A stretch of DNA of 63,187 nt, filler included, from Jimgerdemannia flammicorona (lineage: Eukaryota): the NCBI GenBank assembly GCA_003990765.1. It is 3 parts of 3 records of this genome, joined end to end, with 100 filler letters (N's around TTAATTAATTAA, not from the genome) between each part and the next. Parts side by side here need not be neighbours in the genome. Positions count along the whole stretch, not along the records: positions 21,119 to 42,108 come from RBNJ01001550.1; 2 more parts are not named here. One strand, given 5' to 3'. Every line of letters begins with the position of its first letter. Position 1 is the first letter of the stretch. Shown one piece after another: positions 9,856-63,182 of this stretch. The translations under genes were made by a program, and so were the position numbers. Under the pieces are notes generated by a model, which saw only the letters and a list, made by a program, of their open reading frames with translations, was not told the DNA's origin and did not search any database.

Positions 9856-9869
9856 GGTATGAGAAGTAT

Positions 9870-16860: not shown

Positions 16861-16874
16861 GATTTTGAAATCGT

Positions 16875-16892: not shown

Positions 16893-16894
16893 AA

Positions 16895-21018: not shown

Positions 21019-21118
21019 NNNNNNNNNNNNNNNNNNNNNNNNNNNNNNNNNNNNNNNNNNNNTTAATTAATTAANNNNNNNNNNNNNNNNNNNNNNNNNN
21101 NNNNNNNNNNNNNNNNNN
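21019..21118. other. Artificial contig spacer (N-TTAATTAATTAA-N)
   Basis: 100-nt N run with a six-frame stop linker. Identical to the spacer at 42109-42208. Confidence 0.98.
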
Positions 21119-24100: not shown

Positions 24101-24731
24101 CGCCCCAGCATTCAGCTGTCAGTACCCAGTCAATCCTTGTTCCCAGACTATTCACCCAGTGTGTATAGACCCTGGAGTCGCCCCACCATGTTCGGCCCAT
24201 ATCCCCTAAGGAGCTAAGGTTTCCCACCTCCTCCCATGCATCTAGACTGCCACTCCTCCCCCCAGCATTCCTCCCTCCATCAGTTCTATCCAGCTGCAGA
24301 TCCCGAACCATGTTAAAATCACCACCAAGAACATTGACCCCTTCCTTCAAGAGAATGCCCTCCTCTAGTAATTCCTTAATTTATGCAATCCTCTCTCCCC
24401 TCGCTGCCAGGCAGTAGCAAGAGCCCACCCTCACTGAGTCCCACCCTGGCCGGTGCCATTTACCCCAGACCAAGCAATCTCCCCAGCTCTTGATTCCCTC
24501 CAAATCTCCTCTTCCCTTCTTTACCAGAATCGCCACCTTTCCAAACCAAGTGGTAGCCCCACCCCATTCCGTAGTCCATTCTACCCTATCATCCTCATCC
24601 TCGCACTGTACATCCTGCAGTAAAAAGAGATAAGCCTCCAATCCCTTTAGCCAAGTAAAAATGTTCTTATGCCGCCCCTTTCCCCGAAGTCCATTCACAT
24701 TGAGAGAGAGAATGTTAGTTGTACTGTTCAT
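21119..24731 (-). pseudogene. LINE ORF2 (APE endonuclease-RT-CCHC)
   Basis: ILSLNVNGL, LLQD, LGGDFN, RIDW, WRSIMLLNMDRKL, FLDQEKAYD, GVPQGDLLSP, FADD, YLGI, and CEEC...EHWLGEC. Several stops. Confidence 0.93.
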
Positions 24732-24762
24732 TAGAAATAATGTTAAAGATAAAACCTCTCCT

Positions 24763-26697: not shown

Positions 26698-27254
26698 CCC
26701 CAGGCCATAACCCCTCCCCACCTTCTGCCAGCTGAAAGCCCCAGCTTCCCCCAACCCAGTATGCCTGTTGGAACTCTTGCTCGATGATATATTGATAGTA
26801 CCTTTTCTCCTGGTTGTGTCGAAATCCGTTGCTTGAAGTTTTTGTGTAATGCGAATTGTATAGGAGAAAGGTGACATCAGAAGATTCACCTTAGTCATGA
26901 TGTTGCAGTATACACCCTGAAGAAAGGAGATAACTGAAGCCAGATCTGAAAAAGTCAGATTCGAAAATACCAGACCAAAAAGCCTGGAAAAAGAATCCTC
27001 AAGATCTATGATCTGGGAGAAGACATCCTAGCTCTCATCAGACATGCAACCTGCCAAGGATGGGCAGAAGATGCCACCAACTTCATGGAAGCCCTTGACC
27101 CTACAGTAAAGAGGGGAATTAATTACCTCCGAGACCCCTCTACTGGAGCCAGATGGCCACACCTCAACCTTAGAGCTTGGAGGCTTTTCACTAGTAGAGC
27201 TTCAGCCTTAGGAAAGCCTGAACTCAGCAAGGACATTGCTCAGTATGTCCTGCT

Positions 27255-27645
27255 GCACCCCAAGGCCAAACCCCTGACCAAAGCCCACCCAGAGGATACA
27301 GGATATGATCTTCACAGCCTGGAGGATGAATCTATTAAGCCTGGAAAAACCTTCATGGTCAGAACCGGATTAGCCATCAGCCACCTCAAGGAGCTTATAT
27401 TCAACTGACCTCAAGGTCCGGACTTGCCAGATAAGGGATAACTGTAGAAGGAGGAACCATTGACCCTGGATATACAGGCGAAATCAAGGTCATCCTATAC
27501 AACAGCAGTGCAGAATGGCACTAAATCATTAGAGGACAGAAGATTGCCCAAGCAGTCTTCATGAAGGTCAAGACCCCACAGTTACAGGAAGTCCCTGAAC
27601 TAACCAAGGGAACAAGACAAGCCAAGGGATTTGGAAGTTCAGACA
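27255..27645 (+). pseudogene. dut: dUTPase domain of element C
   Basis: KAHPEDTGYDL, SRSGLA, GGTIDPGYTGEI, KIAQAV, TRQAKGFGSS. One frameshift near 27380. Confidence 0.92.
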
Positions 27646-27991
27646 GAAAAGAGGTACATCTCCTTTAAGTCAACTACCTCAAGAGGAATGTTCCCCAGCA
27701 AGTGTATCAGCAACCAGTTAGACTACACAAGAATCTCATCCTGGAGCCCAGAGAACAAACTACCTTTGAAATCTTTGTACCACCCAACCCCAGAAATCTT
27801 TTCTTTGAACCTAAGGAAGATATCCCACACCTAGACATAGAGAGACACACATTCTCTGATAAGATGAATCCAGTACACTCCTGAGCAACCAACCAAAGTT
27901 GGGAGACCATCATCTTGCTGAAAGGAACTATCATAGGACATCTGATGCCTTTTCTCAACCGAACTCATAGGGAAGTTTATGAACTAAACCT

Positions 27992-29464
27992 ATTGGGAAA
28001 TGGCAAAAGGTCCCAGAAGAAAGGAAAGGCCCCTCTGCGACCCAGGAGACAGTGAAGCCTTCCACCAACATTGGAGAAGAATTGACACCTCAACAACAGC
28101 AACAACTAATAGAACTTCTCAACAAATATCAAGATATCTTCACCACCGATTATGGCAACCTACCATGTAACCCATCATATCACCACAGCATAAATACAGA
28201 AAATGCAACACCCATCTGACAGAAACCCTATAGAATATCCCATCACTTAAAAATATTTGAAAAAGAGCACATACAAGAACTTTTAGACAATGGAGTCATC
28301 CAACCCTCTACCAGCCCCTGGGCCAGCCCTATACTTATTGTACCAAAGAAAGGAGGATGGAGACTCTGTGTGGATTACAGAAAACTCAACTCAGTCACTG
28401 AGAAGAATGCTTATCCTTTGCCCAGAATCGATGACCTTTTGGACCAGTTACAAGATGCCAGATACTTCAGCAGTATGGACCTCTTCACAGGATTCCATGA
28501 GATCCCCATGGACCCCAAGGACATTCAAAAGACAGCCTTCCTTGCTCTAGGAAAACTGTTTGAATACCTCCGAATACTCTTTGGACTCTGCAATACACCC
28601 CCCACCTTTCAGAGGATGATGAATTCGGTCTATACTCCCTTGATCCACCACTGTCTGATTGTATACATGGACGATTCCAACATCTATTCAGCAAATTTCG
28701 AAGAACACCTGCACCACTTAGAGGAATTCTTCAAGCTCACCTGCAAGAATCACTTGAGATTGAATGCAAAGAAATGCTACTTTGGAAAACAGAAACTTGA
28801 ATTCTTAGGATTCATGGTTTCAAAGGAAGGAACTCATACAGACCCAAAGAAAACTGAGAAGATCAACAATTGGCTGGTATCCAAGACTCCAAAGGAAACA
28901 CTATCATTCTTGATGCTAGTATCCTACTACAGAAGGTTTATCAAAGATTTTGCCCAAATTGCTGCCCCAATCTGAATCCTTCTCAAGAAAGAAGTGCCAT
29001 TCAAATGGACAGAATCACAAGGAAAAGCCTTCAGAGAACTCAAGAACTGCATGACTACAGCACCAATCCTTGTGCGCCCCAATCAGAAGCCATTCATCTT
29101 GTATACAGATGCTTCCAAAGATAGCCTAGGAGCAGTTCTAGCTCAAGAAGGACCTGACCAACAGTACCATATGATAGCTTATGCAAGCAGAGCTACCAAT
29201 CAGCAGCAAATGAACTATGGTAGCACCAAACTGGAATGTCTTGCAGTCATATGGGCAGTCACCCTGTTTAAGCATTACCTCATCAGAAAAAGGTTCACCT
29301 TGATCACAGACCATGTAGCCCTCAAATGGCTATTCAACTGCAAGGAACCAGCTGGAATCCTAGCCCACTGGATCCTTATCCTTCAGGATTACAAAATCAC
29401 CATTATTTACAAAGCAGGGAAAGCCTACAACAATGTTGATGTACTTTCCCACCAGCCCCAATGA
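27992..29464 (+). pseudogene. pol: RT-RNase H of element C
   Basis: ORFs 28370-28975 (YMDD) and 28994-29464 (YTDAS, LECLAV, ITDH) lie in one frame. Confidence 0.95.
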
Positions 29465-30520
29465 ACCAGAAGAAGGGTGTCCCAAGGAACTACACTCTAA
29501 AGGAAGCTCCTCAGACCATCAAAGCACAAGAAGATCTTATCTGTAAAGAACATCAGAAGGCTCATCAAGGACAGATAAGTACAGAAGACAAGATTCGAAA
29601 ACTGTATCAACACTGGCCTCACCTCAGAACTCAAGTCCGAGACATCATCCAGAAATGTGACACTTGCCAGAAGTATCAAGGAAAGAAAAACTACCAAGCC
29701 CCTTTGCAACCGATTCCCCTACCCACTCACATCTTTCAGAGATGGAGAGTAGACATAATTGGACCCCTACCAGTTACACCAAGAAGAAACAAATACATCC
29801 TTGTATTTGTAGAACATCTGACCAAGTGGTCTGAGGCTTTCCCAATGGAAATCGCAGATGCCTTAACCATTGTGGGCCTCCTCCATAGACTCACACTCAG
29901 ATATGGACCCCCAGAAGAACTCATCTCTGACCAAGGCACAGAATTCATCAACAACATAATCACAAGTTATGTCTGAATTCACAAGATCCACCTCAAATGG
30001 ACCACATCATACCACCCTCAGACCAATGGCATGATAGAAAGGATGAACCAGACCATCAAGAAAGGACTTGCCTGAGTCAATCCTACCAATTAGGACCTCT
30101 GCTTACCTGAGATCCGATGGGAAATTCGGAACACCCCTGCCACATCCACTAAACAAAAGCCATTTGAAATGATGTTTGCTAAGAGAACAAGAACTGCTGA
30201 CTATGAGAATCTTAGAGACCTCCTCAAGAAGGCAGAACAGCTATGTAATCAAGCCCAAGGACAGATTATCAAAGCTCAGGAAAGACAAAAGAAGTATTAT
30301 AACCAAAAACGGAAGGATCAGGAGATCAAGATTGAAGATCAAGTCCTAGTTTGGAGAAGCATAATTGAGACAAACTTTGCCACCAAACTAGAACCGAAAT
30401 GGAAAGGACCTTATCTTGTACACAATATCAGAGGAATCAGTATCTACTTAAGAAGTATGGATGGATGAACCCTGAGAACACCAGTACATATCAATCGCCT
30501 CAAAATATATTTCCCCTCTG
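29461..30520 (+). pseudogene. Integrase of element C (ATG overlaps the RNase H stop)
   Basis: ORFs 29461-29976 and 30169-30468: HHCC, VDIIGP, ISDQG, KWKGPY. Confidence 0.92.
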
Positions 30521-30524
30521 CACC

Positions 30525-31040
30525 ATGAGCCAAAGGATTGATCAGTGCCTCCAGACATTGGTCCTCAGTTCCTTCCAAGCCCTACCAGTCCCTCTACCCC
30601 AATTCGGCCAAGCCAATGGAAGCCCCCTCCAGAGAATCCAAGTTTATCAAGAAAATCTCATCCTGGTCAGATGCCTACTACAAGTCCACCAACTGCAGGC
30701 CTATTATGCAATCAGTGAACAATTGCAGAACCTCCCAGCCCCAGAACAGACCTATATCAGGAACACCACAGGTCTGACCAGAAGAGACATTACTGCAGCA
30801 GACAGACTATACACCATTTACAAATGAAATATCACAGCTCTGACACAGGCACAATTCTCCCTGAATGATATTCAAGGAATGAACCCTGTTACCTATCTGA
30901 GCATCATCAACTCTGTCAAAATCCTGTTCTCTGAAGAAGAAGAAGAGCCCATAGAATGGAGTGACTCCAGTATAGACAATAAAGATGATGGAACAGGTAT
31001 AGATGCAGAAGTAGCCTATGCTTATTGGGATGATGACTGA
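30525..31040 (+). pseudogene. ORF-X of element C (172 codons incl. stop, one internal TGA)
   Basis: MSQRIDQCLQTLVLSSFQALPVPLPQF...HQLQAYYAISEQL...AADRLYTIYK*NITAL...EEEEEPIEW...AYWDDD. Confidence 0.92.
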
Positions 31041-31079
31041 AGAATAGTCTGGGACAGACTACTCTTCAGTGGGGGCTAA

Positions 31080-32551
31080 TGTGACAAACCAAAACATACC
31101 ACTCAAATTATATCTTAACCAGATGACGTGAACAATTAGACAAGATGACGTAAACACACAGTATAGTAACCAGCAACTATTGCTGTAGAAAAACTATATA
31201 AATAGCCAGACATACCAGAAAGGATCTGTTTACCTGTACAGACTCTGTACACCATACAGACTCTGTATACTGTACAGGTCCTGTACACTGTACAGACTCT
31301 GTACACCTGCCATAAGTAGCAGATCTATAGTTAGCCACATAGTAACCAGATAGCAACCAACTTGTATAAATTACCCCAGAGACAAGAGTGAATAAACCTC
31401 AGTCTGAATTGAAGTGCAAACTAAAGAAGTCTCTAAAGATTGAGCATTGGTCCCCTTATTCCACTCTGGTCCACTTTCTGATACAAAGCTGAAGATTTGC
31501 CACCAAGTTCAAGGAAGAACTTCACCGCCTTTGGAATTATTGTTATTGGTTCGCTTGCCAGATAAGTCTGAAGATTTCCACCTTTTCCGCCTTTTATGCC
31601 ACCTAAGAGAAAGCTGCCTTGCTCAAGCCAGTTTCTGATACAACTTCGCAGTGGAGCCAGTCTACGACGTAACTCTGGGCAAACGAAGCTAGTCTTTGAT
31701 GTAACTTTGCCAAGAGACCCTTTCTAAGCTGCCATCCCATTTCCCAGTTAGAGCCTGCTGATTCAGGAAGAATCCGCATCACCTGCCATTTTTGAGTTAT
31801 CCACTGTATTCCCAGTTGAAACCGATTCAGGAAGAGTCTGCACCATCCAAGTTAATTCCCAGTTAAGCCACCATTTTCAAGAAACCTGCCAAATCTACAT
31901 CATCTGCCATTTACGAGTTATCCGCCACATTCCCAGAAGAACCCCGCCAATTCAGGAAGAATTTGCATCATCCGAGTTACCTGAGTTATCTGAGTTATTG
32001 AATTATCTGAGTTATTGAATTATCCGAGTTATTCGTCATTCTCAGTAAGCCCGAGAAGAATCCGCCACCAGCATTATTCCCAGTTATTTGAATTATCCAC
32101 ATCATCCGAGCTATTATTCCCAGTAAGGAGAACCCACACCTTACATTCCCAGTGAGCCAAATCGAGCCATTCACCAGAAATCACATACTTTTAGAGATTG
32201 TCATACTACATAGAGATCATCATACAGAAATTGTATAAGGAGAACTGCTAAATTGCCAGACCATCACCCAGAAATCACATACTTTTGGAAATTGCCTTGC
32301 TATACAAAATTGTGGCATTCCCAGTTGACCCAAGAAGGAAAAGACATATACATCGCCACTACACCCAGAGAACCGTCCCAATAAAGAAACCACTCACAGA
32401 TATCCAGCTTTGACTATTATACCACTAAACACCAAAGGACCTCAGAAATCTTAGAACATTTTGTTGCTTTTGACAAAGTAACTGGGGGCTCAAGCCAAAC
32501 TACATAAACCCCCAACCTTGTAATTTGCCTCTATTGAGCCGGCATGTTACA
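31080..32551 (+). repeat. 3' LTR of element C
   Basis: TGTGACA...TGTTACA. R/U5 is homologous to the B LTRs, while the U3 segment ~31140-31315 differs. Confidence 0.93.
31234..31306. repeat. 18-bp palindromic tandem array (CTGTACAGACTCTGTACA) x4 in U3 of element C
   Basis: Read directly. It occupies the same position (after TGTTTACCTGT) as the GGACA array in B. Confidence 0.9.
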
Positions 32552-35500
32552 CTATTTATAGACTATAATTCTTTTTTTAAACTATAAGAGAAACTCTTAC
32601 TTAGTGTAATAGTAATCTCAGTATTATTTGAGATTGATCAAATACATTGTAATCTGCTTGAATATACTAAAATATATCTACTATATATTTCTATTAGCAA
32701 TCTCTCTAAATATATTTAATAAACATACTCATAAAATGTATTCCCAGTAATTACATATTTTCTAATTATTGAAAAGACTCCTAAGAAGACTGAAAAAGAC
32801 TTCTTCTATAAAGTAAAAGCAGTTCTATATTATAGATATATATTATGGGTATTTTGTAGACTATCTGTAGTAGAAAAAAGATAATATTTGTAATTATAAA
32901 ATTATTTAGATAAAATTTTTATTTGATAGCTAATTATAAATATATTTTGTAGTAATATATATTATTATATATAGACCAGATAGCAAACTTTATGATTGCT
33001 ATTCAATAGTTATATTTTCATAGTTGATTATCCAAAGATATATTTAATCTGTCTAATCTATATGAATTAAGTTTATTCAAAATATATGATTTCTTACTTA
33101 TAATTTTTATGTCTTGATAAGATATATCCTCTATAAATAGTTTTTGAGATACAGAGAGTAGTTGTAAATAATACACAGATTTATCATTTGAAAGACAAAT
33201 ATAAAATAACTAAAAAGAGCCTTCAAGAGTATAAATTATAGAGATTAACTATATGTATTAATTTTACTTGTTTTCAAATAAATATTTTTTACTAACAATT
33301 ATATCATCTATTAACCAAACTCCAGAATATACTATGGAAACTACCTCTTACAAATATTTATTCAATAATTATATCTGATATGCTTTATTAAATAAAAAAA
33401 GATATCTGGGAACATTTGGTCAATCTAACTCTTAATCTTATTAAGAGTTTATTTGATACATATATAGCAAATCTGCTTATACTAGAGCTAGATCTCCATA
33501 TTTGACTTATTCCTCAATATTCTGGACTCAAAAAATTCTCTACTGAAATTTCAAATCTTAGTTAAATAACTATAGCCAAATATCAATAATTAATATATGT
33601 AAGTATTATATATATTATAGTAAGTTTATAAACTCTTTAACTTAAAAAAAAATCTTTTAAATGATATTTCTCTCATATGAGAGGTATTTTTAAATTACTT
33701 AGTATTGTCAAATATCTCACAACATTTATTGAGTAGTACTTCTATATCTTATTACTAGTCTAGACTAAAAAAATACTTATAGATTAAGATATACTATTAT
33801 ATATCTCAATTCAATAAACTAAAAGAGCAGTTTGCAGAGATCTTTTCAAGTTTGCTAAACTTTAAAAAACTCTACTCTCTATAGTATATTTCTGAGTTAA
33901 CTCAAATATTTAGTATATCAAATAATATTAATATAGAGATAACTAAATATCAATATTACATAGAAGTTAAGATACTATATTGACAAATGAATAAATATAA
34001 TTCTCTTCTCCAAGTTGTCAAGTTTGTAGAGTACTAAATAGTACTTGAGGACAAGCTTGATCATATTATAACTAGTAAGCTTATAAATATCTCAAGCTTA
34101 CTAACAACTAAGAAATACTGAAACCTGAGTACTAGTATCACTCTATATCAATAAAGTTTCAAAATTGTTTAGGCTATATAATTTTAAACTTATCACTCAG
34201 ATGTTTTTTTATAATCTCTGGTTTATATCTAGAAATAGATATCATTATTGAGTAAATAGAAAGAATCTTCCTAAACTTTCAAATCCAAGAGTAAGTTATT
34301 TATGTTAAACCAGTCTGTAAACTTTTTTTGTAATATTTCTAATATCTCTCCTTGATCTTTATAAATTAATATCTTTACCACTTTATCAATTGGAGTTTAT
34401 AATCTATTTATAAACACAAAATTAAGTTCAGCTATATTTTACTAACTTATATATCTACTATAATTAATAGTTCTATAGGAGTCTACAATATAACTAGATA
34501 GTATTATATGATCTTATAGACATGCAGTTTGAGATAAGATAAGGTATAGATAAATATCTTTTATTTAAGTTTACCTTCTCTTTAAAATTGAGTAAGATTA
34601 CTAAGTTTATCAACTTATATATATACTTAGAGTAGTACAACATAGTAGATATTGAGGATTCTAGTATTAAAAACATAGTCTCTCATAATTGTGAGATAGG
34701 AATACCTATCACTATATAGACTAGATAGTTCAATATTATATTTATAGATATAATTATTCATATAGTATATATATAACTCTTGTTTAAGAAATATAATTCA
34801 GTAAGAAAGAACTTAGTGAGTAGATTAAATATATATTCTTTTCATTCATATTTAGTAAATAAGTATACAGATCATATATTATAGAAGGAATTTTTTTAAA
34901 TATATATTTTATTTATAAACATACAGTTAGACTAAATAGTCAAGTATATAACAGTCATATGAACTTGGCATTACTTATAATTATGACTGGTTTTTATTTG
35001 AGAAGTGTGTAGTAATATTAGTAGTACATATATGTTCAATAATAAATTATGTATAATATAAGAGTCTATGGATTATTATTAAAACCAAATCTTTATTGAC
35101 ATAAGTTGAGATTTTTATTATAATATTTATGGTATTTATTGTTCATAGTATATATAATATAGTAGTATTTATAGTATAGTTTGTAGATTCATTATAGATA
35201 TATTTTATATAGTAAATATATCTCATCTTTTCATATTTAAATTAAATCTTATTTACTTATTTCTTATAGATGGTAGATCTGGTTTGGTATTAGGTAAGAA
35301 GTTATATCATAAATCTGACATACTTCTTTGACTACATATATTGTTTCACTTTTGATCTTTTTTTCTTCTAGTAAGATAAGGTAGTATTTTTTTAACCAAA
35401 TGAGTAATTACTATTTTTCATCCTTTCTCAGTCTTGTTATACTGAATTTGTTTGTTATATCACAATTTTTTACCAAATAGATAATTTTTCACAATAGTAT

Positions 35501-36400
35501 TCTTAAAGATAGTATTGGTGGTATATTTATACAATTCAGAGTATATTTTGATTAAGTTCATTAGCTCTGAGTTTTGTTCAGAAACTATATCTTGAGCTCA
35601 TTTAAGGATAGCACTAATTTGTTAAAGTATTTTGTTAACTTTGTTAGTCTGTTTGACTTTCTTTAAAAGTCACTATTACTTTTGGTACTCAGTATTTTGT
35701 TTGGTGCTAACAGTAGTTTTTCATTTCATTAAGATTCATTCTCTATCATCAGAGAACTCTTTATCACTAGCTGGAGATAGTGATGATATTGTTCCTGTTT
35801 TACTTATATAAAACAATCCTTTATTGGCTATAATTTATATTTCTTTCCATTTTATCTGTATAGTAATAAATATCTAGATTTTATCAATAGTATTAAGAAT
35901 ATCATTCAGAAAATCAGAACAGCTGAGTCACAGCTCTATCCTGATATATAATAAATACTATTTTTTTATCATTTTTCTTATCCAGGTAGCCATGCTTGCT
36001 AGTCCTGAACTAAGTCTCAAATTTCCATATGTTTTATGAACTAAATTACTAAGAATACAGACAGAAAGCACAATATATAAACTATAATTTTATAATATGA
36101 ACTCAAATAACTGCAGACATAAACTAGTAAATGCTAATAGATTTGTTTTCTTGAAGACACAGCTATATAAACTAAATAGCAAGTATATAGATAAAAATAT
36201 ATAGTAATATAAACTAAATAGCTGTAAACTCAAACTATGTATATTAAATAATATGAATTTAAATAGCTATAAATATAAACTAGTAAATGTGAACTAAAGT
36301 TTTTTTTTTTCTAATAAATCTTATTCTTATATCTGAAGAGTAAGTTAGAGATCAGAATCTCAGTCTGATAATACTGCTATATAAAGACAAAGACAGGAGA
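32552..36400. other. Very AT-rich, CpG-poor tract, probably ancient decayed TE DNA
   Basis: Almost no ORFs and strong TpA enrichment. No domain could be assigned with confidence. Confidence 0.5.
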
Positions 36401-37236
36401 GAGAATTAGAGAAATTGGAGGCCAATTATATACTTAAATATGAATAGAAAGTTAGTTATGAAGATAATTGTTATGAGGTTGCAGAAGGTGTCTCAACAGC
36501 TATTAAGAGCTGAGCAGTAGGGTTTTGTTGGTAATAGGTTAATTAAAGATAAGATAGTCTGGATTTATAATATAATTGAGAGGACAAGGACTAGTAAGCT
36601 GAATGGAAGATTAATCTTCTTAGATCAGGAGAAGATCTATGATAAGATCTAGTGAGTCTGGCTAGAGAAGATATTGGTGAGAATTAATATCTCTTGCTAA
36701 TTCTAGTTATTGATAATTAGTATGTTAAAGAGCAGCTAGATAGCAATTTTATATAATAGTCATTATGATGTTACATTCTCTTTAGAGAGAGGAGTTTTCC
36801 AGAGAGATCTACTATTCTTAATTTTTTATACTTTATTATTAGAGCTATTAATAGACAGAATTTACTACAAAGTATTGGAGCTTCTAGTGCTAGAGGTGGT
36901 CTGAAAGATTGGGGTCTTTATAGATGATATAGCAGTTGGACTTAACTTTGTTAATGATATGAGCAAACTGAGGACTACTATGAATTGATATGAGAAGTGC
37001 TCTAGAGTAAAGCTCAACTAGTATAAGTATAAGATAATAGTACTGGAGAATAGTTTGATAAGTAGAGATATTATTGAAACTATTGTCTCTATAGAAGAGA
37101 TTGTATAGTATCTGAGTATTTTCCTATCAATATATGGATTAATCTTATCCATAACTTGGTGGGAGAAAAAAGTAGTGAAATAGAGAAATATCTTTTAGAG
37201 TTAGAGAGGAGTACTATATTTCTCTTACCAGATATA

Positions 37237-37585
37237 GTACTCTCAAAAAAATTAAATCAATTCAAATCAAATTGAATTGAGAGTCATTTGAATTAAATTG
37301 AATTGGAAATTTTTTAATTTAAATTAAATTGAGTTTAAATTAAATTGAGAGTCTAATTCAAACTTTATTTTTAGAAATATAATAACTTAATGAAAATATA
37401 TCTAAATTTAATAATCTTTAGCTTATTAGATTCATCTTATATAGGGGAATCTAACAAGCTAAAGATTGTTAAATTTGAATATATATTTGTCAAGTTATTA
37501 TATTTTGAAAAATAGAATTTAAATTAAATTTTAAATCAAATTAGCATTTGATTCAATTTGAATTAAATCAAATTGGACTTTTTAG
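37237..37585. mobile_element. Foldback MITE, copy 1 (right end degraded)
   Basis: Starts TA|GTACTCTCAA. Internally palindromic and homologous to 40168-40416. Confidence 0.75.
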
Positions 37586-37953
37586 CTTGAGTGGTAAAGA
37601 GATTACTGAAGATACATAGCTAAGGACTAGATTTGAGCTAAGAGGTAGAGTCAGATAAGTTGAGAGATCTTAGTGACTTCAGTATATAAGAGAGGTTTAG
37701 ATCTAGTAGACTTCTTGAAGAGAATATATTATCTTAAGGTCTGATGGTTGAAGTGAGTTATTGAGCTATAGAGAGAAGATTGGGTACTATTGATGCAGAG
37801 AGTCTGAGAGATAAGATTCTTTTCTAAAGGATCTTCTGATAATTTATTATCAATAATTAAACTGAAAAGTAGTAGGCAATTGAGATATAGGGGTTTCTGA
37901 TAAGAAGTGATAGAGGGAGCTCACTATATTAGTTTATATTAATATGATAATAA

Positions 37954-39993
37954 TGTAAGCGCACAACCTCCAAGCCACCGAAATCACACGTGACCTCCGA
38001 ACAAATCTGGAAATCACCTGCCTGATCACAAAGCTGAGTCAAACCGAAGTCACAGTGTACAAAGCTGAGTCAATACGAAGTCACGGAATACAAGATTTAC
38101 ACAAACAGAATCTTACCAATCAGAACCAAATGCATATATACCGAGCACCAAGACGCGTCGAAACAGAGAATCAAAACAAACAACAACCACAACTTCTAAA
38201 CACACAAACATGACCACTGAGATCTACAACCGCATCCGCGCCGACATTTGGAATGCCATTGTCAACCGAGCCACACCCCCTCTGCCCCTTATGAATATCC
38301 ATAGCCTAGCACCCCTCTACTTCGTGGAAGCCCGATGGAATGCCCTGAACATGCTTAACGAGGTCCACCGAATCGGACAAATCTCAAGCTACTACCAGAT
38401 CGGCCGCCTCTTGGAAGACATGGTCAAACACCACTATGACACAGACATTACCCAGATGTCTCAACACCAGAAGCTTATCGCCCGCAAACACCGAGAACTC
38501 TTCTACGAGTACAGCACCTTTATTCTCCGCCTCCGAGTTACTACCAGCGAAATGGTTGCTACCCTGTCCTATGGTCAAATCGATGACATGATACAAGAAC
38601 TCAACCACAAGTACCTCGAGTACATTGAAACCACAGACAGAACCTTCCCACACCCTGACGATCACATCCTGCAAATGCCCCAAGTTGGATATGCCATGAA
38701 GGACGTCTACGATATAATCCACTTCGATGAAGATGAAGCAGAAGACAATGATCCCTCTGATGCCGACATGACCTCCAGCCAAGGATCCCTGCCAACCCTG
38801 ATCACACCGCCAACCTTGCCGATGAACTTACAACAGTTCATAACTGTATATGAGACTTATTGGGACAATGACCACTGGCACGAATACCAACCCACGTTCA
38901 CCCCTGATTACTTCAATTACAATGAAGAGACCAGAGAACACAATCTGTACCTCCAGACAACCCTCGAGATTGAACCAACAACTCCACCACCCGAGTATGA
39001 GCAATATGAACCACAGCTGCCAACCTACTACAACCCCGCGACTCATAGCGCTGTGACCTATAGAAGGTATGCAGACAGCGAATCCGATGAAAGCGAAGAC
39101 AGTACACCCATCCTTCGCCCACCAACACCTTATCCAGCATACGAAACAGACGATGCTATTCTGTAGGATGGAGACGAAGTTCCAATGTATTACTACCTCA
39201 GCCAATAAGGAGAAGTAATCCACGAACCACTATTCCTAGACGACTACTTTATCAGAGATGATGCAATCGATGGTGATGTCATCGAAGACTATCCAGATAG
39301 TACCTAAACCTATAAATAGTCTAGCAGTTATAGTATAGATAGAATAGCCCTGTACGACGTGACTGTGAACTGACTCAGCAGTCAGACGATCTCTTGACCT
39401 GTCAGATTACTATTGTACTACGTGACTGCATTCCGACTCAGCAAAGCACTTAGTGCTACATCCATATCTAGCATAGTCCAGATAGCCCCTAACTAGTATA
39501 AATACCCCCTCCCCCAGACCTCAGAATCTCAGACTTAAAGACCTGAACAATCGGAACACAATCCCTGAGCACTTCCCCACAATACCCCTTCACACAACTA
39601 CTCCTAGTATAGCAATATCATGAATAGTGAATAAACCTATTTCATAACCCACAAACCACTCTTAAGTAAATCTGCTCCCTGTTAGGTCCTACTCCTAACC
39701 CCATCACGAAATTTCCTAATTGGGTATTGTCTGCAGCGATACACCAATTCAACTAAGCTGGTCTTAGTTTCTCGAACTTCCTGAAATACAGAAAATCCTG
39801 AACATCCAGAACTAGTCCGAAAAAGGACTTTGGTTGAGACGTCAACCCAATCTTGAAATCAATAAGCGTAGAGGATGTACTCCATACGAAATTGATCTTG
39901 ACCATAAGAAAACGGTCTTCCAGAATATCCAGAACTTCCAGAAAACCCTTCCAGAACTACGTAACGGTTACCCTAAAAAGCAACCCTCTTACA
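37954..39993 (+). mobile_element. Young solo LTR (2040 bp) carrying an intact gene
   Basis: TGTAAG...CTTACA termini. Perfect 5-bp TSD AATAA (37949-37953, 39994-39998). GTATAAATACCCC at 39497 and GTGAATAAACC at ~39627. CpGs retained. Confidence 0.92.
38210..39166 (+). CDS. Intact 318-aa ORF-X accessory protein inside the solo LTR
   Basis: Uninterrupted ORF with an A-rich ATG context and an upstream TATATA. The N-terminal ~135 aa aligns to the five decayed ORF-X copies. Acidic, Pro/Tyr-rich C-terminus. Confidence 0.88.
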   Translation: MTTEIYNRIRADIWNAIVNRATPPLPLMNIHSLAPLYFVEARWNALNMLNEVHRIGQISSYYQIGRLLEDMVKHHYDTDITQMSQHQKLIARKHRELFYEYSTFILRLRVTTSEMVATLSYGQIDDMIQELNHKYLEYIETTDRTFPHPDDHILQMPQVGYAMKDVYDIIHFDEDEAEDNDPSDADMTSSQGSLPTLITPPTLPMNLQQFITVYETYWDNDHWHEYQPTFTPDYFNYNEETREHNLYLQTTLEIEPTTPPPEYEQYEPQLPTYYNPATHSAVTYRRYADSESDESEDSTPILRPPTPYPAYETDDAIL

Positions 39994-40167
39994 AATAAGG
40001 GGAAGGCTCAATAGAGTCCTGCAATATAGAGATAGAATAGACTTCTATTAGATAGTTCACTACTAGTAAACTTTGATATTAGTATAAATATAGAGTGTCA
40101 GCAGAGAGTGGTCCAAGATCTATGATCAATAGACTAGTAGTTAGTAGATATTAGTGAGATATGAGTA

Positions 40168-40416
40168 GTACTCTCAAATGAATTAAATTAGAGATTTTTC
40201 AATTTGAATAAATTACAAATTAAATTAAATTCAAATTGAATTGAGAGTCTGATTCAAACTCTATTTTTAGAAATATAATAACTTGACAAAAATATGTTCA
40301 AATTTAATAATCTTTAGCTCATTAGATTTGTCTTATATATAGAGAAATCTAATAAGCTAAAGACTATTAAATTTGAATAGAGTTCAAATCAAATTAATTT
40401 AATTTATTGAGAGTAC
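40168..40416. mobile_element. Foldback MITE, copy 2 (Tc1/mariner-type ends)
   Basis: TIRs GTACTCTCAA...TTGAGAGTAC flanked by TA on both sides. Central hairpin TCTTTAGCTCATTAGATTT...AAATCTAATAAGCTAAAGA. Confidence 0.85.
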
Positions 40417-41779
40417 TAGATATAGAACTAGACTAGTATATAGTCTTAGAGTACTAAGATATAGTAGTAGTATATTTTGAGAAAAAATAGCATATTGAAT
40501 TTTAGTCAGAATACTTGGTAAAATATAAGAGCTTTAAGTGTGAGAATTACCATAATATAGAACAAGAGAGAGAGATTATACAGATACTCAAATATTGGCT
40601 AGATGAGTATAAGATACTTGATAACTTCTGGATAATAGTTGAGAGTTGTTTAGGAGTGAGACAGTATGATAATAGAAAGAGAAGTAGATAAAATAACTTA
40701 AAAGAGCAGTTAATAGGATGTATCAGTAATGAGTAACTCACTATTGGGTGAGTGTTAGTAGTATGGGTGGAATTGACTAGATATTAGCTATATATGTTTG
40801 AGGATGAGAGACAGATAGCCTTGAGAGAAAAGATAGCAAAATAGAAGAGGTTAATAATATATAGATGTTCTGTCAGGCTAGTAGAGAGAGTGGGACTCTT
40901 AGAGAGATTGCTATCAATATCTGGTAGAAGAGATATATGAGAGAAGTAGTAGATAGATTAGAGTAATTAATAATATGGTTATTTTTAAAAAAAAGTAAGA
41001 GTAGAGGAGAGAGAGTATATTAGAGTAGAGTAAAGTAAAGTAAGTGGAGTTAGGTCTGCTGATATAGTATGAGGACCATGTATTTATTATAAATTAGTTA
41101 ATAAAGAAGCCTAGTACTCATAAAAAGAAAAAAATAAAATAAAATAAAATAAATAAAGTTTAATAAATAGCTAAATATATTATTTTACTTTTTAGTATTA
41201 CTATTATATAAATTAATAAATATTATATATCTAATAAATGAAATATAATTTTTAAATTAGTAAAAATTAAATTATTAGAAATACTATTTATTTAAGTTTT
41301 AACTCTTATAAATATATATTTATAACCTAATTTAAAAATAAAAATAAAAATAAAAAAAGCTTTTAAGCTTAAAGAATAATTATACTAATAAATAAGAAAA
41401 ATTTATCAAATTCGGATATAATTAATTAATTAAATTAAATTAAATTAAGCACTAGCAGAAGTATAACTAACAAAAAAGAAGTAATATAAATCTCAATCAA
41501 TTGGGTTCTCCATTATAAAATCACAGTACATATACTTAGTATACTTAATATACACGTATACTTAAATATATGACAGGTATTCGATAGTATTCAATGTACA
41601 ATACATACCAGAATTTTGTAGTCCCATCGTCCACAACAAAAGTCTCGGACCTCCATGATTTCACGGAATCATTTTATTCGCACAACCAACACTCGTGTAA
41701 ATTGAAATATCATAGTAAATGTAAAAAACAACTCAGCAAAGGCAAAAGGAAGGATGGTGATAGTGAGAAATTACATGCA

Positions 41780-42108: not shown

Positions 42109-42208
42109 NNNNNNNNNNNNNNNNNNNNNNNNNNNNNNNNNNNNNNNNNNNNTTAATTAATTAANNNNNNNNNNNNNNNNNNNNNNNNNNNNNNNNNNNN
42201 NNNNNNNN
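42109..42208. other. Artificial contig spacer (N-TTAATTAATTAA-N)
   Basis: Same as 21019-21118. Confidence 0.98.
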
Positions 42209-42299: not shown

Positions 42300-44098
42300 C
42301 TTCGGAACGACTCGTGGACCTTTGAATCGATCCGTGCCACTCATGGAATTCCACTTTCGGCACCGACCCCGCGCAAGTACGCATACGAAGTCCTACTTCG
42401 AACCGAAGGTTTGATTCAAGTCGGTTGGACGGCGCGGGACAGTCTATTCGATCCAGAGGGCGGTACAGGTGTTGGTGATGATGATCTGTCTTATGGATAT
42501 GACGGCTTTCGTGCCAAAAAATGGCATGGGAGGTGGAGCGATGAGGTAAGTTTTAGTAAGCTTTTCTTGATGGTTTACTTTTTTCTTTCTATTAATAATT
42601 AAAATATTATAATCCGAATACAGTGTGCATATGGTCTAGTATGGACGGTCGGTGATGTAGTAACGACGACGATCGATTTGGACGAGAGAACGATACATTA
42701 TTACCTGAATGGGAAAGACATGGGTATTGCTTTCGAAAATGTGGACGGCCAGCTGGTATGGTTCCCGGTACGTTTTGATTATTTGGTTGATCGTGATTGG
42801 CGGTGTGTTTGTGGAATATAGATTCGCTTTTTTACCGGATGGCCCCAAATTACCAAAGTCGTTCGCAAATTGTATAAAGTGGTATGTATGAGCATGCAAG
42901 ACCATATATATTTATTCTTTCCCTTTCGCGTCATATCAGGCGTTGTCTATCGCCACTGGACAAGGATGCCGCGCGTGTTTTGGTGGTGTACTGGATCCTA
43001 TGCAGTATTGTATCTTTCGCCATATCAGCCTCATAAGGCAACCCTTTTCATTTCTCAGCGACACGTATCACATCACATCACTAACGTTCCTCCAATTTCG
43101 CACTCTGCATATGTCCCATAACTATATACGTTGTGCCTATCAAGGTATTTACCTGAAGAATATAAGCCTATTGCATCGGTGCTAGATTTGTCATTAAGTT
43201 TAGAGATTGAAGATAACTCCACGGGTGAGATGGTCAATGAAAATGCTGTTGCGGAGGGGGAAGACTTGGCTATCAAAGTGGAAAGATCTTTGGTCAGGAG
43301 GGCAAGTGGTAAGCGCAGTAATCGACGCCATCTTTTGGAGCCGTCATCCGTGCCGTCATTCTACTTTGAGGTCACAGCCTCGATTTGCAAAATTAGCCTT
43401 GGCGATGGGCGAAGTTGGGTGAAAGGGAAGCCAAGGGGGTACGTGACTTTGCTGCGTTGATAAAACTGTATGCCGTGTGACCTCAGGCACAGAAAATCAA
43501 CATTGTTCTTTTTATCCCCATAACACTAGACCCGCCCAAATCGGTGCTTTTGATGACCAAGGAAGAGTAGTCTCTCTTGTTCACGACACGCGATTGATCA
43601 GCAGCCCAAGCACATTGCTGATTTGCCAAGTACCCTTGGAGACTTTGCAGGATGGTCGTCTTCCGCAAGTGTTAACCGATTGTTTCGAAAAAGGTGAACA
43701 TGCGGAAGCTCGGGAATTGGTCCTGGAAAACCTTCCGCATGTGTTTACGTTGAAGGATGGAGACGTGGTTGGCGTTTTATTTGAGCGTGAACTTGGCGTT
43801 GTTGGCATTGTCGTAAACAAGGTGGTTTTTGGTATGTACCTTTTCATTTGGACTGCGCGCATGAAAGTCGTTGATCATTTGGTTCGGATGGTTCCACCTT
43901 CTCACGCTATTTTTGTACTGCATAACAGCACAAATCTCGCTCCGTGATTATTCAGCCTTTGCCAGTTTCTCACCTATCGTACCTCACATCGCGAATCTGA
44001 ACAAGTACATACTCAACGTTGGCCAAGAACCTTTCGAATACCATCCTGGCAACACGATGGTTGCAGTAGACAAGAATTTAGGATATCTGGACGGGTAA
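42300..44098 (+). CDS. Host gene, 3' part: SPRY-domain protein (RSPRY1/RNF123-type SPRY plus a second, divergent SPRY-like domain)
   Basis: Exons 42300-42545, 42624-42767, 42940-43004, 43145-?, ?-43831 and 43929-44098 with GT-AG introns. LRNDSWTFESIRAT...KYAYEVLLRTEGLIQVGW...GVGDDDLSYGYDG...WTVGDVV...YYLNGKDMGIAF. CpG-rich. Confidence 0.85.
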
Positions 44099-45754: not shown

Positions 45755-48700
45755 CATCACCTTTCTTCTGTATAATTCACATTACACAAAACTTCAAGCA
45801 ATAGTTTTCAATATAACTTGGAGAAAAGATACTATAAAAATATCATCAAGCAAGAGTTCTGAAGGATATGCTGGGTTGGGTGGATCTGGGGCTTTCAGCT
45901 GATAGCATGTGAAGAGAGGTTATGGATTGGAGATGGGGGCTTTTGGAGGGTCGAAGGGTGGCAAAGGCTCTGGAGGAGAAATAGTGTCAGGTGGATCTAG
46001 GGGAAAGCCTGGTCCCTCCAGCTTTGCCAATAAGGTGAAGGTGAGTAGATGGCCTGCTGGAACCAGGGCTGGTACTGCTGAGGGGAAGGACAAGACTAGC
46101 ATTGGGAGGGAGAGTGGCCCTCAGGTGAGAGATGTGAGCATAGGGGCTGGAGGGGCTGTGGCTGAGGGTGTAACTATTGATAGGAGTGTAACAGAGAATC
46201 AGAAAAAAAAAAGAGATATGATGGCTGATAGCCAGGTGGGGCAGGGGTTCTCAATACGGAAGGGGGACCTAGCAGATAGTGTAATGGGACTGGTAGTAGC
46301 CCTATTGCTCAAGAAGTCAATCTCAGAGTTTGCAGCTACCTTGTACTTTTGGGGCTTGGTAGTGATGGCAAGAATAGTCCTGGGGCTTATTTTGAAGCAG
46401 GTGGCTAGGGCAGTCTTGGTGAAGTTCCTGAAGGGTCTGGAGGGAGTTGAGGTGGGCTTTGAGAAAGCAGACCCACTGGACAAGGCCCTGAAGACTGAAG
46501 TAGTGGTTGGGGAAGTGGTGGTCTCCATAGTATAGTGCTTGAGGTGGGACCCCAGGGTGGTGTAGCTTCTGGTAAGAGGGGTGCCTATAGTGACAAAGGA
46601 GGAGACTAGAAGGAGGGTGGAGGAGGTGATGGCAGAGTATAGTGATGTAGTAGATATTGGCTTCCAGATGTGGGAGGGGACAATATTCAGGACAGGTGAT
46701 GTCAATATCAGGATTTAGCTGGCAGGGAAGGAGGCCACAGGGAAGATGAGTGACTGGCCCTTGGTACTAATGTGGGGGGCTTTTGTCTGTAAGATATCAA
46801 GGGTGAAAGGGAGTGATGAGGAGAAGGAGGACTTATTGGAGACTCTAGAGGAGTTGAGTGGTACTATGGAGAGGAGGGTGAAAGTCTGAAAGCTGTATGA
46901 AGAGTCAACATATCTGAAGGTCATGGATGAGAAATGTATCCATACTGATAGGAGGCAGTGGGAGCAGGCTCAGGGGTACAAGAGGTAGAGGGAGTTTTTG
47001 GCAAGTATGAAAGGAGAGATGAAGAAGAAGTTGGTTGAAGCTGAGGAGGCTAGAGGCATTGAAGCTAGTGTCTGGGCTAGCAAAGGAGGAGAGGAGGTGG
47101 AGGCAAATGTGGAAGGGACTGAGAAGGCACTGGGCAAGGATTCCTATGCTGACAGTACCTTCAAAGTTTGGGAGTAGGAGTTGGATGGTACTCTCCCCCC
47201 TACTTATCAGGAGGGGCCCAGTTGGGAAGAGAGGAGCAGTGGAGGATATACTGATGCAGGGGGCCCAGCAAGTTCACTTTGGGGTCCCAGATGTGGTGAA
47301 AGGGGGTCAGGTGGTAGTGGTTAGTAAGGATGAGCTGGTGGATGTCTCAGAGGAGGAGTGGGATGAGGCTGCCAGTGTGGGAGCAGATATCACAATGCTG
47401 GATACAGGGTAGCCAGAGACTCCTAGAGGGAGGAAGGTGGAGAACTTGCTGTGGATGAGCAAGGTGATGGATAATCTTACAGTTGAGAAGTTGGGAGAAG
47501 TTGACTTACATGTGATGCCAGAGGAGTATTGGGCATGGATTCTGTATGGGGATGGGATGATAGAGGTGTTGAAGGTAGAGATACTTGTGATTTTTAAGAA
47601 GAAGGAGAGATATGTGGTAATGAGGTGAGGGAGGCTGAGTTGGTGATCGTTACTGGTGAGTGGGCTGCCTATTGTTGGATAGAGCATTATGGGTTGCAAC
47701 TCTGGCAGAAGGCATGCTTAGAATACCAGAAGGACTTCAAAGAAAAGGAGAATGGGGTGATGGTGGAACTTCTGACTGGGTTAGAGGCAAAGACAACTGA
47801 AGAGAAGATACTGGCTGCAGAATATGACTTAGACTTAGTACAGGAGGAGCTGGATGCAGATTTGTAGAGAGTATGATTGATAACCAATATTATTCCTTAT
47901 GAACAGTATAACTAGCATTTTTTCTCTGAATATGAATGGGCTATAGAGATTGGGGTGGCATAGGAACATTTTTACTTAGCTTAAGAGATTGGGGGCTGAT
48001 CTCTTTTTACTGCAGGATGTACAGTATGAGGATGAGGAAGATCAAGTAGAGTGGACTAGAGAATGAGGAGGGGCTACTGCTTGGAATGGCAAAGTGGCAA
48101 TTCTGGTGAGGAAGGATAGAGGGGACTTGGGTGGAATTCAGAGCTGGGAGGACCATTTGGTATGGGGAGATTGACACTGACCTGGGTGGGAATCAGTGAG
48201 GGTTGGCTCCTGCTACTGCCCTGCAGTTAGGGGTGAGCAGATTGAGTAGATTAGGGATCTGTTGAAGGAAGGTGTTTTCTTGGAGGAAGGTGTCAATATT
48301 TTGGGAGGTGACTTCAACATAGTACAGAATCCACAGCTGGATAGAACTGATAGAAGAAGGAGTGCAGGTGGGAGGAGTAGTGGACTGGATAAGTGGAAGG
48401 AGGTAGAGAACCTTAGCTCTTTAGGGGATATGGGCAGAACACTGTAGGGTGACAGGAGGGTCTATTCACACTGGGTAAATGGACTGGGTACAAGGATTGA
48501 CTGGATTCTGACAGCCAAATATTGGGGTGCTGATGTTTGGAGGACTCTGGAGGTAGAGTGGTGCCCTTGGTCTGATCACTGGGGGCTATTGGGGCAGAGA
48601 CAGTTTGAGGAGAGTGGAGATAGACCTGGACATTAGTGTCTTAACTCCTCCCTGCTGGCTGAGAAAGGGTTGTGAGACTCATGGGTAGAGGATGTCCAAG

Positions 48701-51624
48701 TGAAGATCACTACCTGGATACATGAGGGATCATCAGTAGATATCTGGTAGATGAGGTTGAAGGAGGCTGCAAGGGTTTATTGGGGAGGAGCTGGTAAGGA
48801 GGCTGGGAGGCAGAGAAGGAAGTGAGTATGGTGTACTTCTAATAGGCTAATTAGATTGTAGATAGAGTGGGCTGAGTTGCTTCATTCTGAAGGGATGGAG
48901 GATTGGAGGTTGGAGCAGGTGAAATTGGAGGTAATGGAGCTACAATAAATATTAAGCAGAGGAGGAGATTCATATAAAAGGAATAGCTGCCAGACTGTGG
49001 TGGTAGGGGCTTAAGGAGGAAGAGCAGCTCACTGGGTACCTGTTGAGGCTTTTCCAAGCAAGGAGGGTGTGCCATCGATGGGATGGGGTCTTGGATACTG
49101 AGGGAGATATGGTACATGATATGTAGCAGATCTTGGGAGTACTGAAGGAAAATTGGAGGGGTCTGTGAAGTGAGGAGGAAGGAGGGGCTGATGAAGAGGC
49201 AATTGAGGATACACTGGAGGGGTGGGTGCTGCCACAAGTAGAAGAACTGAGTGATTTGATCTTACTAGTCCAAGAGGAGGAGATCCAGAGAGTCCTTACA
49301 GCAACTAAGCTGGGGACAGTGCTAGGAGAGGATGGGTTACCTTGAGACTTCTGAAAGAAGATGGTGAAGGTTCCTGGAGTATTAGGAGAGATGACTGCCC
49401 TCTGTGACCATGTTCTTCTGAATGGTGAGTGGGTTGGCAAGCAGAACTTGGGGCTGGTGGCCTTATTGTTCAAAGATAAGGAGAGGAGGGAGGACTGGAA
49501 GAACTGGAGGCCAATCATACTTCTGGATATAGACAGGAAGATAGTGACAAAGGTGATTGTTGTGAGGCTACAGAGAATTGCCCAACAGGTTCTGGGTGAG
49601 GAGCAGTAAGGCTTTGTAGGAGACAGGCTTATCAGGAATGGGACTGCCTGGGTGCATGACATCATTGAGGGGGCCCAGGCTTGTGGACTGGATGGTAGAC
49701 TGGTCTTTTTGGACCAGAAGAAGGCCTATGACCATATTTGGCAGGTATGGCTAGATAAGGTGCTGGATAGAATTGGTATTCCCCCAAGGTTTCAGGCTTC
49801 TATACTGAATTTGTTGAAGGGCAGTAGGGCAGTACTGTTGTGTAATGGTTACTGGGGTTTGGCATTTCCCTTGAGAAGAGGAGTTCCTCAGAGAGACCCA
49901 CTGTCTCCTATTCTTTATGCCCTTTCATTGGAACCTTTGATGGATAGGATACATCAGAGGGTGGCAGGGCTCTCTATATATAGTTTGGTGTAGAAGATGG
50001 GGGTTTTTGCAGATGATATGGTAGTTGGACTTGGGTCAGTAGCAGACTTAAGAAAACAGTGGAATGGTATGAGGCACACTCTGGAGAAAAACTCAACTAG
50101 TATAAGTGTGAGACAATGGTGTTAGGGAATGAGCTAGTGGGAGGGAATGTTATTGGAACAATTGTCTCCACAGGAGAGGTAGTGCAGTATTTGGGCATCT
50201 TCCTTTCTGTATATGGATCTGTCTTGCCACAAGTATGGTAGGAGAGGAGAGTGGCCATTTGGGAGAGGCTCTTAGAGGTTGGGGGGGTCACCACATCTCT
50301 CTGGCAGAGCAGGTGTCAATTCTGAATATCTACTGGTTCCTCAAGCTATGATATGTAGCCTATCACTTAGACTTCCTGGTGTGGGTGGTAAAGAGACTGA
50401 TGAAACTGACTAGAGATTAGATTTGGGTAAGGAGGAGGTCCCAGATCAGTTGGGATACTCTTGCAACACCAGTGGTTAGGAGAGGACTAGGCCTTGTGGA
50501 TTTCTCTAAGTGGCTGCACTGCCTGCAAGCTTGGTGGTTGTAAAGGGCTGTTGAACTGCAGGGTGGAGGTTGGGTGCTGCTGCTGCAGAAGGTGTGAGAG
50601 ATGAGGTTCTCCCCTCAGGGATCCTCAGGAGATTTGCTCTCTCTAGTGGGCCTGACTGGAAGCTGACAGCTGGTATAAGAGCTTCTGGTGGAGGGTGGTG
50701 AATGGAGTACACCAGATAGGACTGCACTGGTGAGGCAATGAGGGAGAGATGCTATGGAGTCCAGCTATATGGCAATGGGACAGACTTCTTCTGGAGGGTG
50801 TTCCACTTGCTGAGTTTGATATTGGTAATGGAGTAGAGTGTCAGTGGGGTCTTGGCCAGGATCTTTGACCAAGTAGTTGGCAGGCTGTGGAGATTGGCAA
50901 GAAGTGGGACTAGGCAGGAGTCTGGTTATGGAGTGCTGAGGTATAGCAGTGGCTTCCTCCTAAGTTCTAGGTGGTATGGTGGCAGATACTGAGGAGGAAT
51001 GTTATGTGGAATTTCCATTCTGGACATCTGGTGGAGAGTGGCTATTTAGATTGTGAGAAGTGTTATAATGTAGAGAAAGTTGGGGGATTTGTGCAAATAT
51101 CTGAACATTGGCTGGGAGAGTGTGAGGTTCTGGGGGACTTTTGGATAGCAGTAGAAAATTAGCTGAGTGTGGAGAGGAAACCAGATGGAGAGAGAGGTCG
51201 CTGGGAGGATTTGAAATCTCGGCTAGTGGGTGGTGTGGGCAATAATTGGCTCACTGTAGGGTGGGTGTTAGCAGTATGGATAGGGCTGATGGGATATTGG
51301 CTCTTTGTTTTCGAGGAAGGGCAACAGATGGATTTATAGGAGAAGTTGTTAAGGTGGGAGGGGTTGATGGAGGATCTGCTGACTGGGTGGTGGGTGGGTT
51401 AGGGTCCCCAGGGTGGTAAACATCATTGCCTGGTGGAAGGAATCTGCGAACAGAGTAGTGGGTGGGTGGAGATAGTGTTAGACAAAGTAGTCTTTTATTG
51501 AGTAGGGGTGGGAGGGGGGGGCTCTCCTAGGGGGATTGGATAGGGTTGGGTATTGTATATTATTTAGATAATAGACAGTGTTTTAATAAAGGAAGAAGTC
51601 TGAGTGACTATAATATATATATAT
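45755..51624 (+). mobile_element. Full-length L1/Tx1-like LINE, copy 2
   Basis: 14-bp TSD ATATATATAAAACT (45741-45754, 51625-51638). AATAAA and a (TA)n tail. ORF1 ~45868-47867 and ORF2 from 47899, both decayed and collinear with copy 1. Confidence 0.93.
47899..51540 (+). pseudogene. LINE ORF2 (APE-RT-CCHC), decayed
   Basis: LGGDFN, WRPIILLDIDRKI, FLDQKKAYD, GVPQRDPLSP, FADD, and CEKC...EHWLGEC. Confidence 0.9.
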
Positions 51625-53679: not shown

Positions 53680-53739
53680 ACTTGGTGCCCATTGGCTAGT
53701 AATTCAAGACAAATTCCTCACTTTCAAGCTGAAAAATAA

Positions 53740-63117: not shown

Positions 63118-63119
<2 letters not shown>

Positions 63120-63182
<63 letters not shown>

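Follow-up and report, generated by a model that had tools for sequence, protein, structure and literature searches.

A probable young solo LTR of Jimgerdemannia flammicorona and the probable accessory gene in its U3 region

The DNA analysed here is a 63,187-nucleotide (nt) stretch from Jimgerdemannia flammicorona (assembly GCA_003990765.1), referred to throughout as the window, and the subject is a 2040-bp unit at 37954-39993 (+). This unit is probably a recently inserted solo long terminal repeat (LTR) of a multi-copy LTR-retrotransposon family whose U3 region holds an accessory gene, here called ORF-X after its open reading frame (ORF).

Ends, host element and motif order

The unit opens with TG at 37954 and closes with CA at 39993, these dinucleotides being the outermost letters of a 6-nt inverted repeat (TGTAAG, 37954-37959; CTTACA, 39988-39993). 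It is bordered on both sides by a perfect 5-bp target-site duplication, with identical copies of AATAA at 37949-37953 and 39994-39998, in agreement with what had originally been read from these ends. In a repeat search of the unit, the 6-nt pair was the longest terminal inverted repeat and internal terminal direct repeats were absent, blastn found no second copy of the 2040-bp unit within the window, and there is no Rfam match within 37700-40300.

The sequence that received the unit is a long interspersed nuclear element (LINE), and the host element is collinear across the insertion. On the left, its reverse-transcriptase (RT) part lies at 36500-37738 (+), where the RT ORF of another LINE in the window (21119-26874) matches 36500-37174 (tblastn, 48% amino acid identity, E 4e-60) and 37616-37738, and where Pfam reports RVT_1 (E 2e-10). 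On the right, the part after the RT lies at 40042-40856 (+), residues 3-29 and 77-197 of the next ORF of the other LINE matching 40042-40122 and 40494-40856 in that order (tblastn). Judged from the tblastn coordinates, the LINE spacing across the insertion is about 260 nt, compared with about 246 nt in the intact relative. Because both order and spacing of the matches are kept, the alignments indicate that the unit is cleanly inserted into ORF2 of a + strand LINE. This LINE is badly decayed, the left flank (33000-37953) having a GC content of 0.25 and an observed/expected ratio (o/e) of CpG of 0.00, so that the earlier description of the host as a heavily mutated LINE is upheld by the matches on both sides, the RVT_1 domain and the loss of CpG. 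Within the decayed LINE, AT-rich 16-26-nt tandem repeats of related sequence flank the insertion at 37250-37349 and 40198-40242, and these two arrays match each other in inverted orientation too.

Inside the unit, the motifs that had been predicted are all present. The sequence TATATA at 38135-38140 (+), a candidate TATA box of a promoter internal to U3, stands 70 nt upstream of the ATG of ORF-X. A first TATAAATA box is found at 39311-39318 (+), directly after the 16-nt sequence TCCAGATAGTACCTAA, which recurs at 39477-39492 (repeat family D7) ahead of the second TATAAATA at 39497-39504 (+), the candidate main LTR promoter at the end of U3. Further downstream, GTGAATAAA (39627-39635, +) contains an AATAAA at 39630-39635 (+), a candidate poly(A) signal in what may be the R/U5 border region, and U5 would then occupy about 39650-39993. 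The second TATAAATA followed by AATAAA is the correct U3-R-U5 order, a statement about motifs and not about mapped RNA ends, and since both come after ORF-X it is a fair inference, as had been proposed, that the gene lies in U3. The putative U5 is variable in length, some contigs from other samples skipping 66-148 nt within 39673-39822 with joints at 39673>39744, 39673>39822 and 39677>39744.

ORF-X, its conservation and its truncation in this copy

As predicted, a frame of 318 codons is present in this copy, an ORF scan placing it on the + strand at 38210-39166, from an ATG at 38210 to a TAG at 39164-39166. Such a length was not reached in any of 2000 first-order Markov shuffles of the unit (mean 107, largest 311). 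Differences among copies were collected from public runs, and the variants discussed throughout are the best-supported 40 of 367. Twenty-two of these fall inside ORF-X, with 16 at third codon positions and 17 synonymous, against 33% expected for transitions (P = 2.5e-5). Two collections of proteins, of 5.8 and 1.8 billion sequences, were searched for homologues, both by length class (near, shorter and longer) and with a full HMMER scan. One of those found, P0002, has 128 amino acids, shares the start of ORF-X and is 95% identical to its residues 1-128, while the other, P0001 (247 amino acids, on a 998-bp contig), is open across codons 115-365 and identical in 163 of 250 aligned columns (65%). 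A length beyond chance, the predominance of synonymous variants and the open frame of a 65%-identical homologue together mark ORF-X as a real gene under purifying selection across copies, and the expectation that the ORF would be conserved among copies is thus borne out. No longer or fused form was found in the same protein sets, looking up the protein clusters yielded no further names, and tblastn (E up to 10) found no remnant of ORF-X in the other LTRs of the window. A repeat protein, P0003 (E 3.5e-6), was rejected as a homologue and taken as a short-motif match, its Pfam hits being many, weak and unrelated.

The product has no Pfam family at E up to 1, save a sub-threshold DUF6869, and no sequence relative in the PDB (best match E 0.3). 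Its best Atlas score, 0.78, is under the counting level, and the label Mucoromycota on the clusters concerned is a lead only. In a low-confidence AlphaFold model, helices extend to about residue 170 and are followed by coil. The protein would be helix-rich in its N-terminal half and has an acidic tail rich in Pro and Tyr; it belongs to no known family.

The original prediction had described ORF-X as intact, which proved not to be the case. The alignment with P0001 begins at codon 115 and is free of gaps; it crosses both the TAG (codon 319) and another in-frame stop, a TAA at codon 333 (39206-39208), and reaches the common end at codon 365. The in-frame continuation (39167-39307, +) thus comprises 46 further codons (320-365) homologous to P0001 residues 201-246, 26 of the 46 being identical, and closes with the family stop at 39305-39307, three bases ahead of the first TATAAATA. 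Four public runs were compared, all of them as contigs: X1, a soil metagenome; X4, from organism A; and X12 and X20, from organism B. At position 39206, other copies read C, so that codon 333 encodes an amino acid; this base accounts for 494.3 of a depth of 518.6 in X1 and for all 27.2 in X4. The two other listed variants of the tail are synonymous third positions. The alignment therefore indicates that ORF-X of this copy is truncated at codon 319 and that its full form has 365 codons. In addition, the window copy has minority residues at codons 73, 76 and 106, where other contigs and P0002 agree with one another, suggesting that it has begun to drift. The TAG at codon 319 may nonetheless be common in a subfamily and be partly read through, which would yield two isoforms, one short and one long. 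In the 120 nt that start with the TAG, however, folding is no stronger than in shuffled sequence (z +0.30), and no readthrough-stimulating structure was thus found there.

Promoters, parents and decay

Relevant to the expression of ORF-X is a 31-nt module (ACAAAGCTGAGTCAA..CGAAGTCAC...) with a TGAGTCA core, two tandem copies of which (repeat family D2, 84% identity; TRF period 31, 2.1 copies) lie at 38028-38089 (+), with TGASTCA at 38035 and 38066, and form a candidate enhancer of an ORF-X promoter. The gap between these copies and TATATA is 45-105 nt. The same module occurs twice more in inverted orientation (39346-39379 and 39413-39442, together 39346-39442, +; inverted pairs I1-I4, direct family D3), 55-150 nt before the second TATAAATA; these inverted copies are 71-77% complementary to 38033-38093 and include a TGACTCA at 39371. 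The TGASTCA core alone is found 12 times in the window, with 12.4 expected by chance, so that only the 31-nt module, and not its core, carries weight. A module present twice before TATATA at 38135 and twice, inverted, before TATAAATA at 39497 makes a separate promoter for ORF-X plausible.

A possible mechanism can be outlined on this basis. ORF-X would have its own promoter, composed of the two modules and TATATA, and its transcript would use the LTR poly(A) signal (AATAAA at 39630, serving both promoters), with an expected mRNA length of about 1.5 kb. In their inverted copies the modules would serve the main promoter for the genomic RNA of the element, so that two promoter units would be built from the same parts and every LTR, paired or solo, would carry its own transcription unit. 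The protein would serve the element, as U3-encoded retroviral accessory proteins do, perhaps (a guess at low odds) as an activator or adaptor whose target is a host factor or the shared modules. The window copy would be a dead-end relic in neutral drift.

Alternatively, ORF-X might be a real U3 gene that has no promoter of its own. It would then be translated only from spliced or subgenomic RNAs of a full provirus, begun in the 5' LTR and extending into the 3' LTR. Solos would be silent for it, and the main promoter would simply use the modules at 38028-38089 as ordinary distal enhancers in U3. The precedent is sag of mouse mammary tumour virus (MMTV), which is expressed from spliced proviral RNAs. 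We regard this as possible but less likely. Multiple enhancer repeats are common in U3, the start of ORF-X transcripts near 38165 is predicted only and the public runs are contigs. The only LTR-borne ORFs found in the literature are, moreover, the retroviral sag and nef, in the 5' part of the LTR (available text of PMC2664473). On the other hand, TATATA stands at 45-105 nt from the tandem modules and 70 nt before the ATG, the leader is A/C-rich and free of ATG, and the module pair is found again at a comparable distance from the second TATAAATA, which looks like two parallel promoter units rather than one. In X12 and X20, whose RNA origin is a guess, the summed depth of contigs over ORF-X is far below that over 39592-39935, a difference from which nothing is inferred since contig depth cannot rank parts; nor is anything drawn from the near absence of cover over the window's flanks in the four runs. 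The stronger form of the promoter scenario, close to the original prediction, is that the LTR is an autonomous cassette, ORF-X being made from every LTR, including the many solos that recombination leaves behind. Solos with open frames would be a dispersed source, not dependent on gag-pol, of a protein helping active members in trans, for example via the 31-nt modules. We consider it unlikely.

That the unit is one repeat among many was examined in other samples. Parts of it occur in 20 public runs, the best of which holds 0.38 of its words, and in X1 3821 contig pieces match it at at least 85% likeness, 544 of them at at least 99%. Contigs of X4, X12 and X20 match the unit up to exactly 37954 or 39991/39993 and then diverge, and beyond these points they agree with one another only at 0.6-0.67. 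This low mutual agreement implies that the unit sits next to many different sequences while its ends are those seen in the window; the samples compared are other ones than the window's own genome. Together with the sequence hallmarks of the ends, the contigs that leave the unit at these points support the earlier view of a stand-alone, LTR-like unit. Four contigs of X4 that enter at 37954 finish in a purine run, ...AAGAAGGGGAGAGT, resembling a polypurine tract (PPT), and one contig of X4 leaves at 39991 and continues through a short spacer into TGGTAGCAGCAG, which starts with TGG and resembles a primer-binding site (PBS); its first nine letters presumably fit the 3' end of eukaryotic initiator tRNA-Met. 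Such junctions are hints of full-length parents and not proof. Within the window, the PBS-like string has no match, the PPT-like string has a single one-mismatch match (chance level) and there is no tRNA gene. Scans for related loci covered ORF-X against metagenome and prokaryote-genome contigs, alignment A2 against metagenome contigs and A1 against viral contigs, and all came back empty; nor did viral or prokaryote-genome contigs contain exact DNA patterns taken from the LTR's 3' portion.

Could the unit be no LTR at all, and instead a complete single-unit mobile element, for example a non-autonomous one moved by a retroviral-type integrase/transposase and carrying its own gene? Integrase-type DNA transposons do have TG..CA ends and short duplications, a partner LTR is absent from the window and the contig scans yielded no full-length parent. 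Nevertheless, the purine-rich and TGG-starting sequences directly outside the ends of other copies, the U3/R/U5 order of TATAAATA and AATAAA, and the lack of longer terminal inverted repeats or of internal terminal direct repeats make this improbable.

Several points do weigh against a solo LTR with an accessory gene in U3. Metagenome, viral and prokaryote-genome contigs yielded no full-length element in which a pair of these LTRs encloses gag-pol, and of the junctions that hint at one, the PBS-like one is a single contig and the PPT-like one four contigs at 0.67 agreement. The variants come from metagenomes and two organisms, perhaps not the species of the window, and the synonymous excess is drawn from a subset picked by support. 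The TAG at 39164 is not among the listed differences and is either private or shared by a subfamily. The protein sets hold only two true homologues, P0001 and P0002, on contigs of about 1 kb, and AlphaFold on the single ORF-X sequence was uninformative (mean pLDDT 37). Even so, the solo LTR whose U3 holds ORF-X remains the probable reading.

The good state of the unit had been attributed either to youth or to self-protection, and its abundance of CpG and CpA had been stressed. For CpG this is correct, the o/e being 0.75 in the unit, 0.00 in the left flank and 0.01-0.28 in five other large repeats of the window, although it is also 0.61 (at 28% GC) in the 2-kb right flank. For CpA it is not, the unit (0.97) hardly differing from either flank (0.95 each), so that only CpG distinguishes the unit. 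Places at which the window's C or G is replaced by T or A in other copies (C>T and G>A) exceed those of the reverse kind (T>C and A>G) in all four runs (127/61, 148/71, 106/29 and 121/34), and 10 of the 18 listed C>T/G>A changes fall at CpG, though only 73 of the 591 C of the unit are in CpG. This excess at CpG in other copies suggests that the family decays like other repeats and that the window copy is simply young; on this evidence its good state is due to youth, not to self-protection. Protection of the unit from C-to-T decay by ORF-X or by the LTR would account for the CpG contrast with the 5-kb left flank. It is nonetheless very improbable, given that T or A stands at the window's C or G in other copies about twice as often as the reverse, that the listed CpG changes mark a family hit like other repeats, and that the window copy already has stops and minority residues. 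No signature of repeat-induced point mutation (RIP), for which TpA/ApT should be well above 1 and (CpA+TpG)/(ApC+GpT) well below 1, was found in the flanks, where these ratios are 1.10-1.13 and 0.92-0.98. In the older repeats at 33000-37953, 45757-51508 and 52209-63187, CpG is nearly absent (o/e 0.00-0.03) without a RIP-like bias in CpA or TpA, which points to a CpG-targeted process, e.g. methylation-driven deamination.

Least credible of all is that ORF-X is a chance or dead, non-coding frame in an A/C-rich, T-poor strand, for although random frames grow longer on a T-poor strand such as this (T makes up 21% of the unit on the + strand), and ORF-X has no family, fold or named homologue, the shuffles, the synonymous variants and the open, alignable frame of P0001 all speak against it.

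Surroundings and relation to known systems

The genome, probably fungal, is rich in repeats. The segments at 21019-21118 and 42109-42208 each consist of 44 N, TTAATTAATTAA and 44 N, an artificial six-frame-stop linker, from which it follows that the window is made of three contigs of about 21 kb and that features separated by a linker need not be adjacent; the middle contig (21119-42108) holds the unit. Two oppositely oriented LINE copies, 21119-26874 (-), the better-kept LINE of the window, and 45757-51508, are 77% identical over 5.8 kb, with a strong strand asymmetry (GC skew about 0.4-0.5), and one of them keeps a 542-codon open frame with no Pfam match, probably ORF1. Several Gypsy-type elements are present (8294-18306, 26873-31577, 52209-60838 and 602-20113), some with a dUTPase domain in pol (12420-12989, -; 55854-56591, +). 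Their LTR pairs include 8294-9304/17317-18306 (85% identity) and 52209-53680/59403-60838 (84%), while the pair 602-1165/19562-20113 suggests an older element with the 8294-18306 element nested inside it. The third contig has a SPRY-domain gene fragment with an apparent intron at 42300-42820 (+; Pfam SPRY E 4.8e-11), which, being on the next contig, is not shown to be a neighbour of the unit; its Atlas look-alikes (0.94-0.97) are labelled Rotifera, Chlorophyta and Mucoromycota, each on very few members, and so point to no firm host taxon.

Several known elements resemble the present one in part. Cassandra elements, which are terminal-repeat retrotransposons in miniature (TRIM), have LTRs that carry an independently transcribed 5S RNA gene and thus, as the LTR with ORF-X would, embed a separate transcription unit in every LTR, solos included; their gene is, however, a non-coding RNA gene transcribed by Pol III, whereas ORF-X is protein-coding and accompanied by Pol II-type signals. 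BARE1-type LTRs have two TATA boxes giving distinct RNAs and resemble this LTR, with its candidate boxes, in having more than one, but both BARE1 starts give gag-pol RNAs with different fates, whereas the upstream box here would serve a separate gene.

Sag is similar in size to ORF-X. Neither it nor lentiviral nef has sequence similarity to ORF-X (Pfam finds nothing), the host here is a retrotransposon of a probably fungal genome and not a vertebrate virus, and ORF-X, unlike sag, would have the whole gene, a candidate TATA box and an enhancer-like module inside the LTR. The likeness is one of position: LTRs of MMTV contain ORFs, and the 5' third of the LTR is where nef and sag are found (so far as the available text of PMC2664473 goes). 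Like ORF-X in its presumed place in U3, they are long ORFs towards the 5' end of the LTR, ahead of the TATA box and thus in both LTRs.

The additional ORFs (aORFs) of plant and fungal LTR retrotransposons, such as Grande, RIRE2, Retand, Athila and the fungal Boty, are internal, most of them placed after pol and before the 3' LTR (PMC7264820, in the sections available). According to the same sections, they are extra genes with no assigned function that lack relatives beyond the elements themselves and persist in most copies of a family, and in this they resemble ORF-X. Being internal, they are lost when a solo LTR forms, whereas ORF-X is wholly inside the terminal repeat. The phrases 'in the LTR', 'within the LTR' and 'inside the LTR' do not occur in the text of the review. 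No retrotransposon with a complete gene in its LTR was found in the literature, which does not prove that none has been described.

As a young solo-LTR insertion the locus itself is ordinary, though its family is less so, and its own copy of the ORF is already broken. The interest lies in the family, and in ORF-X as an orphan under selection. Known accessory genes of LTR retrotransposons are internal and vanish when recombination between LTRs leaves a solo LTR, while a conserved protein gene with promoter-like signals in the LTR would survive this recombination and be present twice per provirus. A gene borne in this way would change how the 'coding' copies of a family are to be counted, and relics usually supposed to be dead would then encode a public good among transposons, in a case open to testing.

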